Below, one piece after another: positions 43,398 to 56,176 of a DNA stretch of 64,000 nucleotides. The notes beneath the pieces are model-generated. The model searched no databases. It saw only the letters and a program-made list of their open reading frames with translations, and had not been told where the DNA came from. The DNA lies in assembly GCA_963709015.1 (NCBI GenBank), contig CAVPUU010000058.1, positions 9,658 through 73,657 of the forward strand, given 5' to 3'. Positions within the stretch are counted from its first letter, which is position 1; the number at the start of each line of letters is the position of its first letter. This stretch comes from an uncultured Alphaproteobacteria bacterium. GTDB lineage: Bacteria > Pseudomonadota > Alphaproteobacteria > Rhizobiales > Xanthobacteraceae. The translations under genes and the position numbers were made by a program.

Positions 43398-43733
43398 TCA
43401 TTCAGCCACGCTCGCCCGCTTCTTCGGCGCTAACGCGCTTTTATCGACCCGCGCGATCCAGTCCTCGACGGCGGCGATCTCGTCCGGTGCGTCCTCGCGC
43501 ACCTCGTCATAGCTCAGGCCGTAATCGAGGCCTTCGAGCATGGCCTTGACGCCCTCGCGCGCGTCTTCCGGCACCAGCGGCGCGTAGCGCGCCAGACAAT
43601 CGCGCGGATCGCGCTTGCAGGCGCGGGCGCGCCGGCAGGCGGGCTTGGCGCAAAAGCCCCACAGGCAGATCATGTTGGACATCCAACGATAAGCCTCGGT
43701 GAGGGCGGCAGATTGGGCATCGTTGGTTTTCAT
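43398..43733 (-). CDS. Hypothetical protein with a Cys cluster (CxxxxCRRxxxC...C)
   Basis: MKTNDAQ...ICLWGFCAKPACRRARACKRDPRDCLARY; host-like codon usage. Confidence 0.68.
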   Translation of the reverse strand: MKTNDAQSAALTEAYRWMSNMICLWGFCAKPACRRARACKRDPRDCLARYAPLVPEDAREGVKAMLEGLDYGLSYDEVREDAPDEIAAVEDWIARVDKSALAPKKRASVAE

Positions 43734-44270
43734 CGCATGTTTTTCATTCTGCATTTCAGGCAAGCTCCACCGTTCTCGCGGCGCGGCAGCGCCCGAGGTT
43801 TGGGGCACCGGATGCCGGGCCTGCCCGGTATCCGGCACGTTCAAGTCCCTCGCCAAAAAGGCGAGGGGGACGGCGCGCCAAGCGGCGCTACCGTTTCTTA
43901 TGTGCACGCGTTCTCGCGAACGCGTGGCGCCTTTCGGCGCGCCGTCTCGGCGTTTTCCTTGCGGCGCCGGGCCGCGCTTTCGGCTCGGCTCTTGGCGTGC
44001 CGTCGGGCTTTTGCCCTCCGGCCGGCCGAGCCGACCACCGTCAGCGAGCTCCTCGCGGGCGGCCCGTAGTGGCCACCGGGCGGAGCCCCGGCGCCGCCCG
44101 GGTGCAAGGCCTGCTTAGCCTTGCCCGCGGGCGCCGGCCCGAACCCCACGAGCCGGAGCAACCGGTTCGCGTCCCCTCGGGGGATCGGACGGGACAGAAT
44201 AAAATCCTAGACTGTGGCGGAATTTTGTCCTAGGACGGCATTGTTGAAAAATTCGGCGTCAAAGTTGGAT

Positions 44271-44833: not shown

Positions 44834-44983
44834 GTAGGGCGGGTTGCCGACCTGTCCGCCGACCTGTCCGCCGAAGCCCGGAGGGCGAAGGCGGAAGCTC
44901 GGAGAGCGGAGGCGGGAGGCATAACCCGCCGATTCGTTGAAGCGGCCGGAATGGCGGATTACGCTTCGCTAATCCGCCCTACG
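44834..44983. repeat. GTAG-type REP doublet with two nested 33-nt mini-elements
   Basis: GTAGGGCGGGTTGCCGA[inserts 44851-44916]AGGCATAACCCGCC ... GGCGGATTACGCTTCGCTAATCCGCCCTAC. Confidence 0.85.
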
Positions 44984-44985
44984 GG

Positions 44986-45198
44986 CTACAAATCGTCCGT
45001 CGTCAGGCCGGTGTGCTTGGCGATGCGCGCCAGCATGCGCGGGCCGATTTCGTCGCCGTCGTGAAATGCGAAAACGAAATCGGGCGACCCCGGCCGCTGC
45101 AAGGTGCGATGCGATCCGCTCTGTCGTTTGACGATCCAGCCGATCCGCAACAGCGCCGCGAGCACCCGCGACGCCTTGGCGGCCGGCCAGCAACTCAT
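44986..45198 (-). CDS. hicA: HicA family toxin
   Basis: 70 aa; RIGW..KRQSGSHRTL (GSH motif), FHDGDEIGPRMLARIAK. Confidence 0.88.
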   Translation of the reverse strand: MSCWPAAKASRVLAALLRIGWIVKRQSGSHRTLQRPGSPDFVFAFHDGDEIGPRMLARIAKHTGLTTDDL

Positions 45199-45398
45199 GC
45201 AAGCTGGAACATGCCGGCGAGGTCTTGCGGCAGCGCTTCGCCGTTCTCGACCCGCTCGGCGATCACGCGAAGCGCGAGTGCCGTAGCCTTGGAGCGCGCC
45301 TCTGTGTCGGATGCCCCGTAACTGAGGACGCCGGGCAGGGCCGGCACTTCCGCCAGCCAGCGGCCATCGTCCTCGCGTTCGGTTTCAATGCGCAGCAT
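45195..45398 (-). CDS. hicB: Short HicB family antitoxin
   Basis: EREDDGRWLAEVPALPGVLSYG; 4-nt overlap with the hicA start. Confidence 0.86.
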   Translation of the reverse strand: MLRIETEREDDGRWLAEVPALPGVLSYGASDTEARSKATALALRVIAERVENGEALPQDLAGMFQLA

Positions 45399-45470
45399 GC
45401 GGGATAGATAGCATTGCAGGCGCGGTTTGTCATGGCCGGGCTTGCCGAATGCGCCGGGCGCGTCAGTCCA

Positions 45471-45542
45471 TCCGCTCGTCCCCGCGAAAGCGGGGACCCA
45501 GGTGCCAAGAACTGGATTCCCGCTTGCGCGGGAATGAACGGA
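45471..45542. repeat. CCCGCGAAAGCGGG...CCCGCTTGCGCGGG doublet repeat
   Basis: CGTCCCCGCGAAAGCGGGGACCCAG / CTGGATTCCCGCTTGCGCGGGAATGAACG; related copy at 56080-56176. Confidence 0.8.
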
Positions 45543-45553
45543 GCAGGGCGGGT

Positions 45554-45619
45554 TAACACGAGCGTATCCACTGACTTCTTCAAGGCATCAATCTTCTTTT
45601 CCAAACCGTCAGTAGCCAT
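45554..45619 (-). pseudogene. 5' half (22 codons) of small HTH-like gene 2, split by an inversion
   Basis: MATDGLEKKIDALKKSVDTLVL; joins in frame with 46652-46771 after re-inversion. Confidence 0.78.
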
Positions 45620-45621
45620 AG

Positions 45622-45837
45622 CTATTTCTTTCTTTTTTTCAGACGCGAACGGATGACGCTGACGGTGTTGGTCGAGGTACTAAGTATCTCTGCGATCTCC
45701 GTCGGAGAAAGACCCAAGCGAGTTAGAAGATCTACTCCTTCGGACACCGAAAAGTTTTCGGAGTGGTCCTTAATGTGAAGCGCGATCAAAACGCCTAGGC
45801 GCTTGGAGATAGATTCAAGTAGCTTGGTACTTTCCAT
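45622..45837 (-). CDS. Small HTH protein 1 (71 aa)
   Basis: MESTKLLESISKRLGVLIALHIK...LGLSPTEIAEILSTSTNTVSVIRSRLKKRKK; AT-rich. Confidence 0.8.
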   Translation of the reverse strand: MESTKLLESISKRLGVLIALHIKDHSENFSVSEGVDLLTRLGLSPTEIAEILSTSTNTVSVIRSRLKKRKK

Positions 45838-45844
45838 AGTTGCA

Positions 45845-45870
45845 TTACGCCCTCGGCTAACCCGCCCCAC
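45845..45870 (-). repeat. Truncated GTAG-type REP
   Basis: Minus strand reads GTGGGGCGGGTTAGCCGAGGGCGTAA and stops before CCCGCC; the HTH1 ATG follows 7 nt later. Confidence 0.72.
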
Positions 45871-45918
45871 GCGTTATTTTTCTAGCGGTGTAAGCAGCGA
45901 GCGCAGCGCCCTCCCTCG

Positions 45919-46498
45919 TCAATGAAACTTCTCTCCCCTCCCCAACATCTCCAAAATCGCCTTCATCCGTTTCTCGCGCGTCTCCGGCTTTTTCGCCGTC
46001 TGCAATCGAAACGTGATCGCATAGACATTGGCACGGTTGAGCGTGGCGAAGAACGCCTTGGCCTTCGCGTTCCTTGAAAGCGCCGTCAGGAAGTCCTTCG
46101 GCAGTTCCGACTTGCTCGGCGCGTCATAGGCAACCTTCAGACGTCCGTCGGCCTTCGCGGTCTCAACGGCCTTCAAGCCGGCGGCTTTCATCTTGCCGGC
46201 CTTGGTCAGGCGCGCAACGTGTTCGAGGTTTTTCTTCGACCAGATGCTTTTGGCGCGGCGCGGCGTGAATTTGCGCAGCCACGATTGTGCGTCGTAACTT
46301 TTCAGTTGTCCGTCGATCCAGCCGTAACACAGCGCCGCGTCGAGCGCTTCGGCGTAACTCACGGAAGGCGTGGCCGAGGTCTTTTTGAACAGCCGCAGCC
46401 AGAATTCCATCCGACGTCCCGTGATGCTTCGCGAGCCATTGCTGCCATGCTTTTGCAGATGCAAAGGCGAGGATTGGAATTTCGGCGGTGACTTTCAT
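45919..46498 (-). CDS. YdeI/OmpD-associated family protein (one frameshift)
   Basis: WQQWLAKHH, YAEALDAALCYGWIDG, FTPRRAKSIWS, AKKPETREKR. Confidence 0.87.
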
Positions 46499-46541
46499 GA
46501 AGCAATCCTTGGCGCCCGGCTTGCCCGGCCGCGACCAGCCC

Positions 46542-46652
46542 GTAAGGTGGATTGGCGAAGCGTAATCCGCCAATTAATTTCCGTCCAAATGCAAATCGGC
46601 GGGTTACGCATCCCGCCTACGCTCTGCGAGCTTCGGTGGGCAGGTCGGCTAA
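46542..46652. repeat. GTAG-type REP doublet with a nested 33-nt mini-element, cut by the inversion breakpoint
   Basis: GTAAGGTGGATTGGCGAAGCGTAATCCGCC ... GGCGGGTTACGCAT[46612-46644]TCGGCTAA; the missing end GCAGGGCGGG lies at 45543-45552. Confidence 0.8.
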
Positions 46653-46771
46653 TCGAAGTGGCAAAGTCGGGTGCCACTAGGGATCAAGCGCGCCGGGCGC
46701 TTGGTTCGTTGGACAATAACGCGGACTCGCAGATAAGCGCTCTATTCAACGATCCTAAAGGCAAAAAATAA
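46652..46771 (+). pseudogene. 3' half of small HTH-like gene 2
   Basis: IEVAKSGATRDQARRALGSLDNNADSQISALFNDPKGKK*; stop is 1 nt before the next ATG. Confidence 0.75.
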
Positions 46772-46772
46772 A

Positions 46773-46946
46773 ATGGCGAAATCACAAAAGGCTTCTGAGA
46801 AGGAGCGAACCATCGACCTTCTGGAGCGCATTGGTGCGGCGCTCCTTTATACGAAGACAAACCTAAGTCAGACTGCGGTGGCAAAAGTCTTAGGTGTCGA
46901 TAACAACCGCATCAACAAAATATTAAAAGGCGTTGAGAAGGACTAA
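46773..46946 (+). CDS. Small HTH protein 3 (57 aa; absent from the ORF track)
   Basis: MAKSQKASEKERTIDLLERIGAALLYTKTNLSQTAVAKVLGVDNNRINKILKGVEKD*. Confidence 0.78.
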   Translation: MAKSQKASEKERTIDLLERIGAALLYTKTNLSQTAVAKVLGVDNNRINKILKGVEKD

Positions 46947-46951
46947 TAATC

Positions 46952-47111
46952 ATGGGTAAAAAAAAGTCTGACAAGTTGGAGCCGATGGAGGAGATCAAGA
47001 GACTTCTTGGTTCTCGGGCTAATTAATCAGGGGGTGAAGGGAAAAGACATCGCGGCCGTGTTACAGGTCGACCCTGCAATTATCAGCCGAATGATTTCTG
47101 GCAAGAATTAA
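46952..47111 (+). CDS. Small HTH protein 4 (52 aa after removing one extra base at ~47008)
   Basis: MGKKKSDKLEPMEEIKRLL/VLGLINQGVKGKDIAAVLQVDPAIISRMISGKN*. Confidence 0.7.
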
Positions 47112-47115
47112 AAAT

Positions 47116-47694
47116 ATGGCTGATAGGCTCAACCCCAGCATTTTGGAAACATTGGTCACGAAGACTGGCAAAACGGCTCAGCAGATCCGGCCAAGGCTGT
47201 CGGAGCTGCGCCGAAAGCATAGTGGGTTGACGATGAACGCTGCAGCGCAGATGTACGCTCGGACGCACGGGACTTCTATAATGGCGAAGCTCGATCAGAC
47301 GGATAGACAATCACTTGCTACCGTGCAGTCTATTACTCAGGTGAGCGTCTCCACCGTATCGAAGGTCGACAAGCGCACGTTGAACATCAACAACTCGCCA
47401 ATCCACAATCTCTCATTTGGCGATCGAAATACGCTTAGCCAGAGCGTGATCGCGCTAGACGACCACCTAGCCAAGTTGTCAAAGAAGATAGAGCAAAGCG
47501 CCGCGTTAAAGCCAGAAGAGAAAGCTGACTATAAGTCTGATATACAAACCATCGCTAGCCAGATCGGGAAGAGCAAACCAAGTAGGACAATTATTAAGAC
47601 AGCATGGAACGGCGTTAAGGCTTTGGCCGAGATTGAAGGATTTGCACAGTTGATCAGCCGAATTACTCCTCTCATCGCGGGCTTTTTCTCGTAG
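47116..47694 (+). CDS. 192-aa two-domain hypothetical protein, putative effector
   Basis: Intact AT-rich ORF 4 nt after HTH4; helical N-domain, N/S-rich linker, amphipathic helical C-domain. Confidence 0.8.
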   Translation: MADRLNPSILETLVTKTGKTAQQIRPRLSELRRKHSGLTMNAAAQMYARTHGTSIMAKLDQTDRQSLATVQSITQVSVSTVSKVDKRTLNINNSPIHNLSFGDRNTLSQSVIALDDHLAKLSKKIEQSAALKPEEKADYKSDIQTIASQIGKSKPSRTIIKTAWNGVKALAEIEGFAQLISRITPLIAGFFS

Positions 47695-47708
47695 AGAGGT
47701 ATCCGCGG

Positions 47709-50640
<2,932 letters not shown>

Positions 50641-50718
50641 TGGGCTTAAATTGGAACCCGAGCAAACGCCCCACGCGCGGCGCCGCGGATTTGCGGGTCG
50701 CCGGGGGCGCGCAGCCCG

Positions 50719-50733
50719 GAACGTAGTGAGAAC
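50719..50733. promoter_or_regulatory. Alphaproteobacterial LexA (SOS) box upstream of uvrA
   Basis: GAAC-GTAGTGA-GAAC fits GAAC-N7-GAAC; about 80 nt upstream of the uvrA start. Confidence 0.8.
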
Positions 50734-50786
50734 GACGGCTTTTCGCCAGTCCCTGAGGAGGCCCGATCGGCGCAGTGGGGATAACC

Positions 50787-50821
50787 AAAAACGCAGGGCC
50801 GGCGCTCAGGCCGGCCCGTGC
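50787..50821 (-). terminator. Probable intrinsic terminator of the omp gene
   Basis: GGGCCGGC-gctcag-GCCGGCCC hairpin followed by a T-run on the minus strand. Confidence 0.6.
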
Positions 50822-50843
50822 AGTCGTTGTGCTGGCGCAGGAC

Positions 50844-51506
50844 TTAGAAGTGGTAGTTCACGCCGCCGCGCACGATGCTGGTCTTGAAGTTGACGTCGGT
50901 GGCGAGCGCGCAGGTGGCCGCGCTGCAATTCGCCTTGCCGAGATCGGCATAGAGATATTCGACCTTGGCCGACCAGGCGCCCTGAAACGCGTATTCGAGA
51001 CCGCCGCCGGCGGTCCAGCCGATTTTGGTTTCGGTCTCGGACGGCAAGCCGCCCGGCGTCATCTTCACGTCGGCAAAGGCCGCGCCGCCGGTGACGAAAG
51101 GCATCCAGCGATCGAAGGCATAGCCGACGCGGGCGCGCGCCGTCGCGAACCAGTCGTTTTTGGTCTCGCAGCAGGCGGTGGCGTCCGTGCCCTTGATCCA
51201 ACTGGCGTCGATGTCGCCTTCCGCGCCCAGCACGAACTGGCTGGTTTGCAGGTTGTAGCCGATCGTGCCGCCGACCATGCCGCCCCTGACGTTGAAGTTG
51301 CCGGTGGCGGCGCCGGTTGAATCGGTCCAGTTCGATGTGCCCCAGGCGTAGCCGCCGTTGATGCCGACGTAGAAGCCGGTCCAGTTGAACGGCGCGCTGG
51401 CGGCGGGCGCCTTAAAGGCGGGGCGCGACAGGTCGGCGGCGAGCGATGGCCCCGCCACCGCGCAAGCCAGCAGGCCCGCACACGCCGCGAGAGTGAAACG
51501 CTGCAT
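50844..51506 (-). CDS. Omp25/Omp31-like outer membrane protein
   Basis: [35 protein letters not shown], terminal NYHF. Confidence 0.9.
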
Positions 51507-51655
51507 CTATTCCCTCCTGATGATTTCGGCCGAAGCGAACTCCGGGACAGGGGGCGGACGCTATATGTTGTGGATGATTCGAACTGTGATCTTTATACAA
51601 CAGAAAGAGCGAATTATTGAGCCGAATCAGTTGCCTAATTGGTTAATATCCACTA

Positions 51656-51670
51656 GAACAAAAAAAGAAC
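51656..51670. promoter_or_regulatory. LexA (SOS) box upstream of ssb
   Basis: GAAC-AAAAAAA-GAAC fits GAAC-N7-GAAC. Confidence 0.75.
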
Positions 51671-51860
51671 AAGATTGTGGCCCGATTATTCGGTACAACC
51701 TGGGCGGCACGATAGAAGCGCTGTGGATTAAGGCCGAACGCGCTTGCCGCATCGGGGCCGACGACTAGGGTGAGAAGTTAATTTTCGGGGCGGCGCGCGG
51801 CGGGCGGCCCCATTACCGGCGAGGCCGCGCAATCGCGCGACCGCCAGCGCGGAGAGCATC

Positions 51861-52349
51861 ATGGCAGGCAGCGTCAACAAGGTGATCTTGATCGGCAATC
51901 TCGGCGCGGACCCGGAAATCCGCCGCACCCAGGACGGTCGCCCGATCGCGAATTTGCGCGTCGCAACCTCGGAGAGCTGGCGCGACAAGGCGACCGGCGA
52001 GCGCAAGGAGAAGACCGAGTGGCACCGGGTGGTCATCTTCAACGAAGGCCTGTGCAGGATCGCCGAGCAGTACTTGAAGAAGGGCGCGAAGGTTTATCTC
52101 GAAGGCGCGCTGCAGACGCGCAAATGGACCGACAAGGACGAACACGAGCGCTACTCGACCGAGGTAGTGCTGCAAGGGTTCAATTCGTCGCTCACCATGC
52201 TGGAGGCTACGCGCGGCGGCGGCGGGGCTGACGACAGGCTCCGACGGGCGGCGACGATTTCGGCGGCAGCGCGCCGCCACGCGAGCGCAAGCCGGCGATG
52301 GCGGGCGCCGGCAAGTCGCGCCGACATGGACGACGAGATTCCGTTCTGA
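51861..52349 (+). CDS. ssb: Single-stranded DNA-binding protein
   Basis: [27 protein letters not shown]-terminal MDDEIPF. Confidence 0.97.
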
Positions 52350-52368
52350 CGTTGAAGCGGCTTTTGAT

Positions 52369-52483
52369 CCGTCACCCTGAGGCGCGAGGTCGCGAAGCGA
52401 TCGAGCCTCGAAGGGCGACGGCCCGGATTTCAGCGGCCGTTATCCTTCGAGGCCCGGCTTCGCCGGGCACCTCAGAATGACGG
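52369..52483. repeat. GTCACCCTGAGG...CCTCAGAATGAC doublet repeat
   Basis: Same family as 24296-24401; between convergent ssb and marC. Confidence 0.8.
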
Positions 52484-52519
52484 GTAGAGGGCGGTGCAGT
52501 TCCAACCCTGCTGATTGCA

Positions 52520-53147
52520 TCACCCAGCCATCGCCGCGCGCACGCCGTCGATGACAAACTGAACGGCAAGCGCGGCGAGCAGCACGCCGAGCAGGCGCGA
52601 CAGAACGATATTGGCGGTGGTGCCGAGCATGCTGGCGATGCGCGCGGCCAGCAGGAACGCGACAAAACAAAGCACCATCACAGGGGCGACCACGCCGAGC
52701 AACGCGGCCAGCCGCAGCGGCTCGCCAGCGGCGCGGCCTGCGAGCAGCACGGTGGCGGTGATGGCGCCGGGTCCCGCCATCAGCGGAATGGCGAGCGGGA
52801 AGGCGGCGATGTTGCGCACGTGCTCTTCGATGGCTTCCTCGGCCTGGCGCGATTGCCGCACCGTGCGCACGCCGAACACCATTTCCGAAGCGATGGAAAA
52901 CAGCAGCAAGCCGCCGGCGATGCGGAACGCGGGCAGCCCGATCGACGAGCGTGCGCAGCAGCCAGTCGCCGATCAGCGCGCTGCCGGCGAGGATGGCGGC
53001 GGCGATCAGGCAGGCGCGCAGCGCCACGCTGCGGCGCGACCGCGCCGGCAGGCCCTGCGTGACCGCAACGAAGGTCGGCACCAGGCCGAGCGGATCGACC
53101 ACCACGGCCAGTGTCACCAGCGCGGAGATGAGGAATTCGAGCGGCAT
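52520..53147 (-). CDS. MarC family membrane protein (one frameshift)
   Basis: VVVDPLG, AFPLAIPLMAGPGAI, SRLLGVLLAALAVQF. Confidence 0.88.
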
Positions 53148-53346
53148 AAGTTCCGCGTAGCGGCGGCTTACCGGCGGGTCAAATCGAGGCGCGCATTCGC
53201 GGCCCTGCGGCGGCTTCTGAATTGATGCGTAAATCATTGAAATATCGTTGAAAAATAGGCCTGTATTACGCCGCGTTTTCGGGTGGCCATCCGAGGGTGA
53301 ATCAGTTACGAAAATTGGTCCGTAAAATACGCCGCGGGAAGTACCC

Positions 53347-56073
<2,727 letters not shown>

Positions 56074-56079
56074 ACTTTA

Positions 56080-56176
56080 CTGTCATGCCCGCGAAAGCGG
56101 GTATCCAGTACCCCGGTCTTGATGTTATCCGATAAACCGTGATTACTGGATCGTCCGCTTGCGCGGACGATGACAG
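56080..56176. repeat. GTCATGCCCGCGAAAGCGGG...GCGCGGACGATGAC doublet repeat
   Basis: CTGTCAT/ATGACAG ends, inner ATCCAGTA/TACTGGAT. Confidence 0.8.

Follow-up and report, generated by a model that had tools for sequence, protein, structure and literature searches.

Within the window, the 64,000-nt stretch of DNA analysed here, a segment of 1100 bp lies inverted with respect to what appears to be its ancestral order and is joined to its surroundings through only 3 bp of shared sequence. The inversion is proposed, at a probability of roughly 45%, to have arisen once, recently and inside a cell, through crosswise rejoining of two nearby breaks at TTA/TAA. The locus behaves as an illegitimate microhomology inversion, and it fails the tests for a RAYT product and for an invertible switch. 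The observation is single and unreplicated, and a chimera is a possible, if unlikely, origin.

The flipped segment spans positions 45553-46652 with the overlaps included, which confirms the precise inversion of about 1.1 kb with 3 bp of junction homology that the initial annotation had claimed. The two ends match in inverted orientation over exactly 3 bp (TTA at 45553-45555 and TAA at 46650-46652), with mismatches directly outside and inside, and no foreign, lost or duplicated bases were found at either junction. Reverse-complementing the segment mends both ends without gain or loss of a base, also as claimed. At the left end, the predicted REP doublet similar to that at 44834-44983 is reconstituted (84-92% likeness over the inverted matches I1-I3). 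At the right end, a single 61-codon open reading frame is restored, located 2 nt past the HTH1 stop and 1 nt ahead of the start of the next gene. This in-frame gene had been named HTH2, but no HTH match was obtained for it: the 3′ half has no Pfam match, the full-length homologue P0001 has no NCBIfam match, and the weak HTH matches belong to the neighbours of the split gene. In the un-flipped order, the REP doublet, ydeI, the REP arm, HTH1, the 61-codon gene, HTH3, the small paralogue and the 192-aa gene form one co-directional run (Table 1), in which the small genes are spaced 1-5 nt apart. In the present order, the frame of the 5′ half of the split gene runs on through 96 codons of REP and intergenic sequence.

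Table 1. Features of the inverted segment and its surroundings (window coordinates)
Feature	Position	Strand	Evidence or remark
REP doublet, intact, GTAGGGCGG(G/A)TT family, comparison copy	44834..44983	+	Inverted matches I1-I3 to 46537-46649; two long stems when folded
hicB then hicA toxin-antitoxin pair	44986..45398 (hicB 45195-45398, hicA 44986-45198)	-	Pfam HicA_toxin, E 1e-14; HicB-like below cut-off
Second REP family, genus-wide, unbroken, abutting the left junction	45472..45543	.	DNA matches in 36/36 same-genus genomes drawn, mostly via that repeat
Left junction: 5′ stub of the broken REP, ending with the TTA overlap (45553-45555)	45543..45555	+	Sequence
Inverted segment, 1100 bp including both overlaps (unique part 45556-46649)	45553..46652	.	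Opposite-strand joint 45555/46652 in X2 and X3
Split 61-codon gene, 5′ half (21 codons)	45556..45619	-	Aligns with the N-termini of 16/16 homologues
HTH1, 71 aa, first gene of the small-gene array	45622..45837	-	Pfam HTH_23, E 1.6e-4, below cut-off
Single REP arm, ydeI/HTH1 interval	45845..45870	-	X2 and X3 contigs cease matching there
YdeI/OmpD-associated family gene (ydeI)	45919..46498	-	Pfam OmdA, E 1.5e-17
Right junction: remainder of the broken REP doublet, ending with the TAA overlap (46650-46652)	46537..46652	-	Sequence, inverted matches
Split gene, 3′ half, now without a start	46653..46771	+	73-93% identity to 16 homologues
HTH3	46773-46946	+	Low-GC array (46773..47694)
Small paralogue, frameshifted	46952-47111	+	Low-GC array
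192-aa protein, no known family	47116-47694	+	Low-GC array, convergent with the uvrA 3′ end at 47709

Comparison with relatives, which the initial annotation had proposed, indicates that the window order is derived and the un-inverted order ancestral, because the un-inverted joint occurs elsewhere, the homologues of the split gene are unsplit, and the distant arrays L014-L017 are co-oriented. Contigs of two other soil studies (two of four runs) join 45555(-) to 46652(+), the un-inverted right junction; X2 (study P2, depth 3.8) extends over 149 nt and X3 (study P3, depth 2.7) over 99 nt on the short side of this joint. The window-order joint was found in none of the pieces listed from five runs. 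All 16 homologues of the 3′ half are unsplit proteins of 60-65 aa carrying both halves (lengths 22-70 searched). No close copy of the island was found in a DNA search of 60 relatives, where the matches were mostly to REP and hicAB; the run with the best word share reached 0.23 of the window, and X1, which has this best word share, covers the flanks only.

The un-inverted left junction would follow from the likeness to the REP at 44834-44983 and from record 27 of X5, which matches 45896-46652 and ends exactly there; no record bridging this junction was seen among the listed pieces. X2 and X3 cease matching at 45846, and ydeI may be absent upstream of HTH1 in these strains, apparently with other DNA in its place. 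The records of X2 and X3, from strains about 97% identical, each fail to match the window at a single letter, the central one of the overlap. The right site in these strains thus reads T-x-A, most likely as part of a TTG leucine codon, given that leucine is found here in 16/16 homologues, and the homology shared in the true ancestor may therefore have been 3 bp or merely T.A. Differences from X2 amount to 5/175 and 4/149 in the split halves versus 18/777 in the intact neighbours; as the halves are as near to the relatives as the intact neighbours are, the event is either recent or artefactual.

The inversion is probably a real molecule, perhaps a minority variant. The inverted molecule is known from this assembly alone (68 contigs, 81.6% complete; the window lies in contig C58), and the assembly may record a minority molecule rather than the population. 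An amplification or assembly chimera had been considered less expected in view of the clean two-ended junction. A simple one-junction chimera indeed does not fit an inversion that is both reciprocal and lossless, but the artefact was under-rated, as the same assembly is of low depth and contains fold-backs and many indels. In such an artefact, the backbone would have been a chimeric long read, each piece of which was polished by normal reads in split alignment without the flip being undone. Long-read assemblers tolerate gaps of about 1 kb within overlaps, and at low depth the features of a single read can be fixed in the assembly. Chimeric reads account for 1.7-8.2% of nanopore data in the available text of one study (PMC10025935). 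Three of the 68 contigs start with fold-backs of 15.2 kb (C42:1-15186), 7.9 kb (C61:1-7912) and 4.5 kb (C31:223-4516), with loops of 35-45 nt in C42 and C61 and none in C31. The C42 loop may be a nanopore adapter remnant. One-base gaps relative to G005 occur at 5.1/kb in uvrA and 9.2/kb in gyrA beside the locus, compared with 2.7/kb genome-wide, and the window uvrA is distributed over at least six pieces in three frames, whereas that of G005 is one 994-aa frame. The absence of the window order from the pieces listed elsewhere and the lack of decay in the split halves are likewise consistent with an artefact.

In contrast, an artefact would need two exactly reciprocal junctions, whereas each artefact seen in this assembly is a lone fold-back junction at the end of a contig, with a loop of 35-45 nt in two of the three. 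The locus is an internal two-junction event located about 50 kb inside C58, without a foreign or lost base at either junction, and mis-joining at the level of the assembly graph requires more than a 3-bp overlap. Furthermore, no other in-place inversion was detected in 1,838,213 bases aligned to G005, a comparison that took in 2.8 of the ~4.1 Mb of G005 and covers 47% of the genome; the island was not found in G005, so that the locus inversion itself would be undetectable there. The six strand-switch candidates relative to G005 are, by their coordinates, repeat-sized pieces of 47-136 nt or an IS edge; with no in-place inversion among them, the assembly is not riddled with inversions of the amplification type. 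On balance, a chimeric read or assembly error is an unlikely source of the flip, although clearly less so than any of the enzyme-directed routes considered below. If it were the source, low-depth long-read genomes can carry precise internal inversions beside fold-backs. Elsewhere in the window, numerous one-base indels, which are most likely consensus errors, interrupt uvrA and gyrA (47709-56100), and ydeI contains one extra base near 46403 that is absent from each of X3, X4 and X5 and is probably a consensus error.

Neither the length of the overlap nor its location in a REP is far beyond chance. An overlap of at least 3 bp is expected for 6% of random breakpoint pairs; REP copies occupy 302 of 3400 local bases (9%), and one of two ends would fall inside a REP in about 17% of cases. 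The non-random part is that a single flip mends both ends at once. A 3-bp overlap would be TTA/TAA in 0.8% of cases locally, 0.13% in the genome and 2.5% in the low-GC island. The account of a one-off event leaves the identity of the overlap to the conserved TTA of the REP and to coincidence.

In the proposed one-off event, two nearby breaks would be rejoined crosswise through the shared TTA/TAA overlap. Breakage and rejoining is favoured over polymerase template switching because two independent template switches rarely land reciprocally. When the four possible single-daughter outcomes were worked through by hand using the letters at the junctions, none agreed with a 4-nt stagger, which would limit the strand stagger to 3 nt at most. 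The ends may have been joined by host enzymes without Ku, through alternative end-joining or a topoisomerase slip, and without a dedicated recombinase. It is unusual for end-joining to leave both junctions lossless. Whereas the fold-backs of C42 and C61 contain loops of 35-45 nt, nothing was inserted or lost at the junctions of the inversion. Rearrangements with join-points in REPs and exchange mediated by gyrase are known, and the locus resembles illegitimate microhomology or REP-BIME rearrangements in its short homology, in the lack of a dedicated recombinase and in having one end in a REP; it differs in that both junctions are exactly reciprocal and lossless and that the 4-nt gyrase stagger does not fit. 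REPs bind gyrase and serve as IS targets, as described in the available text of PMC3333891.

Several other routes were considered and rejected. The 4-nt stagger of gyrase fits no single-daughter outcome unless mismatch repair acted independently at each end, and Ku-dependent joining finds no Ku match in the 81.6%-complete genome. Restriction and ligation is not supported, as the TTAA palindrome is present at one junction only per orientation and CTNAG at neither, and an integron attC-like site is not apparent because the right site has no G before TT. Fragility of a hairpin loop was also discarded: when the un-inverted left site is folded, the overlap falls within a loop of 5 nt, but the homologous hairpin does not exceed shuffled sequences in stability (z -0.9), and 11 of the 58 local TWA sites lie inside REPs. 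A tandem-inversion duplication followed by two exact deletions is compatible with the letters but needs four events.

The initial annotation had interpreted the locus as an operon knocked out by REP-directed recombination of the RAYT/HUH type. A gene and a REP are indeed broken by a reciprocal, lossless inversion, but direction by a RAYT is not borne out, and it is very improbable that REP-directed cleavage and strand transfer by a RAYT (TnpA-REP, HUH) produced the flip. The REP that contains the left junction belongs to the family found on either side of a RAYT gene at C39, it has a GTAG-type foot and a hairpin, a C|T step is located at the overlap edge on the bottom strand of the left site, and an intact RAYT is present at C24. 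However, the search of the genome for a RAYT flanked by the REP family of the locus, which had been proposed at the outset, returned a single gene, at C39, that is internally deleted and lacks residues ~37-100, including the HUH motif. The RAYTs at C24 and C13 sit between other REPs, and that at C13 contains an internal stop. The RAYTs characterized so far act on single strands, which they cleave at C|T or C|A, and no inversion product is reported for them in the available text of two studies (PMC8266576, PMC3333891); a CT-to-TT change abolishes cleavage, in the available text of the former. Only one of the four required strand cuts falls at C|T or C|A, a rule that was measured on gammaproteobacterial enzymes, and the break lies in the conserved arm at TTA. 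In addition, the REP foot at 45543 reads GCAG rather than GTAG, which may be a consensus error; no other copy of the GYAGGG arm in the genome is broken at TTA, as judged from pattern lists; and one single-strand exchange between opposite strands would give fold-backs rather than an inversion. No paper on REP- or RAYT-driven inversions was found in the literature searched. All three RAYT genes (C39, C24 and C13) were found with NF047646 in this noisy, 81.6%-complete genome, and PF01797 missed all of them. The REPtron at C39:17826-18386 belongs to the REP family of the locus, and its RAYT has an internal deletion of ~190 nt; the C24 and C13 RAYTs have REP types of their own.

The same annotation had offered an on/off switch as a second possibility and had noted that no recombinase or long inverted repeat is nearby. 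The latter observation holds: the shared repeat is 3 bp, no junction-flanking repeat is among the 25 longest inverted pairs, and the nearest tyrosine recombinase (PF00589) is ~21 kb away. These features themselves speak against the switch. A programmed, reversible inversion that turns the small-gene array on and off would resemble the systems of Hin/Gin serine and Fim-type tyrosine invertases in that the ~1-kb inversion is conservative and could re-wire transcription; the flip is lossless and formally reversible, and it parts genes 3-5 from the upstream region. In contrast to those systems, the locus has no inverted sites of ~10 bp or more at its ends and no neighbouring recombinase, and no PF00239 or PF07508 match was found in the 81.6%-complete genome. 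Among the contigs of other samples, the un-inverted joint is present in two of four runs, whereas the window order is in no listed piece of five runs. The pair of sites is also not conserved, since in X2 and X3 the DNA preceding HTH1 is apparently different and the right site differs in its middle base. A switch is the least probable of the explanations weighed here and can be regarded as extremely doubtful.

Off-target inversion by an IS110 bridge recombinase is scarcely more credible. The genome contains six IS110 matches, and the available text of PMC11208160 describes scarless inversion via a 2-bp core and the targeting of REPs by such enzymes. However, the flanks of the elements on C17 and C52 point, by eye, to other repeat families, those on C50 and C35 are unclear, and a crude 11-mer comparison of each site with four IS110 regions gave 8-10 matches at best, as did shuffles. 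The IS110 elements in other repeat families are located at C17:31246-32641, C17:41126-42521, C50:90522-91797 (interrupted) and C52:~54400-55660, and a further one, at C50:~158880, is preceded by a copy of the start of a murC-like gene.

The junctions may alternatively represent the scar of a resident IS630 transposase, which cuts at T-N-A with a 3-nt stagger. Two inverted copies would have recombined before both excised without trace, or a local hop would have been aborted with the flanks linked crosswise. The overlap is the same as the 3-bp T-N-A target duplication of this family (NF033545, PF13358), which is active in the genus, and TTA/TAA makes up only 0.13-2.5% of 3-bp inverted matches. 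Copies in the genome are up to 99.8% identical, and matching 3-bp flanks (TAA, TTA or TGA) were found for 17 of 27 copies, a set that includes 18 stretches picked from near-full-length matches. The other ten comprise three without a flank at a contig end, three whose flanks agree, by eye, once shifted by one base, and four mismatched copies. The 5-mers of both sites occur at real targets (L195 and L203; L193 and L204). If the ancestral right site was TGA, in line with the middle letter of X2 and X3, both junctions would carry the left trinucleotide, as a staggered cut followed by replication predicts. The target duplication of IS630 elements is generally given as TA, in contrast to the 3-bp T-N-A found here, and no paper on a 3-bp T-N-A duplication by IS630 was found in the literature searched.

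Against an IS630 scar, no IS copy or footprint is present at the junctions, and a strict scan around the locus revealed nothing that convincingly resembled an IS end. Inversions mediated by an IS normally retain the element at their ends, and we know of no route by which a DDE transposase could invert DNA without leaving a copy. Among the local TWA sites scored on the flank profile, which is built from only 17 sites, the left one reaches the 55th percentile, but the flanks of the right site are disfavoured (3rd percentile, below all 17 leave-one-out values of 0.33-0.98). The match was, moreover, noticed after several IS families had been looked at. An IS630 scar is therefore improbable. Equally improbable is the more general idea that the IS630 transposase inverts host DNA between two T-N-A sites without a scar, the locus with its left trinucleotide at both junctions being a captured example; if this were true, transposases would gain a scarless inversion activity, and IS630 would be a so far invisible source of small bacterial inversions. 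The element, of ~1167 bp with ends TACCAA...TTGGTA, is found at C18:7299-8465 and on C19, C20, C24, C28, C41, C59 and C17 (L053, L187-L204), and about 20 of 228 same-genus genomes contain copies of nearly full length. The flanks of the copies at C24:3339-4503 and C41:38385-39551 are apparently swapped (TTA/TAA and TAA/TTA), as after recombination or a repeat mis-join.

As a one-off event, the locus would be a clean, natural and lossless inversion with at most 3 bp shared that knocks out an accessory operon, and lossless inversions of this kind escape repeat-based inversion finders. The split gene is predicted to be dead, and genes 3-5 would be severed from the upstream promoter of the array. 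This promoter, with ydeI-HTH1, is predicted to be aimed now at hicBA, which in the window order lies downstream of the flipped genes in the same direction. A promoter scan gave two matches versus 1.0 expected, with none upstream of HTH1.

The inversion is located in an accessory stretch punctuated by REPs, from hicBA to the 3′ end of uvrA, in which the GC content falls to 47-50%. The hicBA pair has a counterpart in G018 that is 90-95% identical, and HTH1 has relatives of 59-68% within the co-oriented arrays L014-L017. Family searches (Pfam and NCBIfam) of the small-gene array yielded weak HTH matches only, and a scan of genome contigs with HTH3 gave a single weak locus. The 192-aa protein used as a query was found in none of 227 other same-genus genomes, and in the ESM Atlas it matched only unnamed clusters, below 0.9. 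An Rfam scan gave one sub-threshold match, on a palindrome.

Window positions 45622-47694 and L014-L017 consist of arrays of four to five tandem, translationally coupled proteins of 55-80 aa, followed by a larger unknown protein. Several members are weakly HTH-like and paralogous, and such arrays, which have no family name, recur in distant low-GC genomes and metagenomes. The region past the 3′ end of uvrA (window 44834-47709, L002, L022 and L187) differs among relatives in the manner of a cassette-like hot spot, containing hicAB, ydeI, the small-gene array or, in G210, an IS630 copy, with REPs between the genes. In X5, ydeI has REPs on either side. At window positions 43398-44220, a cysteine-rich 111-aa open reading frame without a Pfam match follows a GC-rich, palindrome-rich non-coding stretch of ~480 nt. 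This region resembles, by eye, an element of ~520 nt that has no Rfam match at E 0.1 and is present at six places in the genome (C32, C42, C64, C40, C15 and C27).
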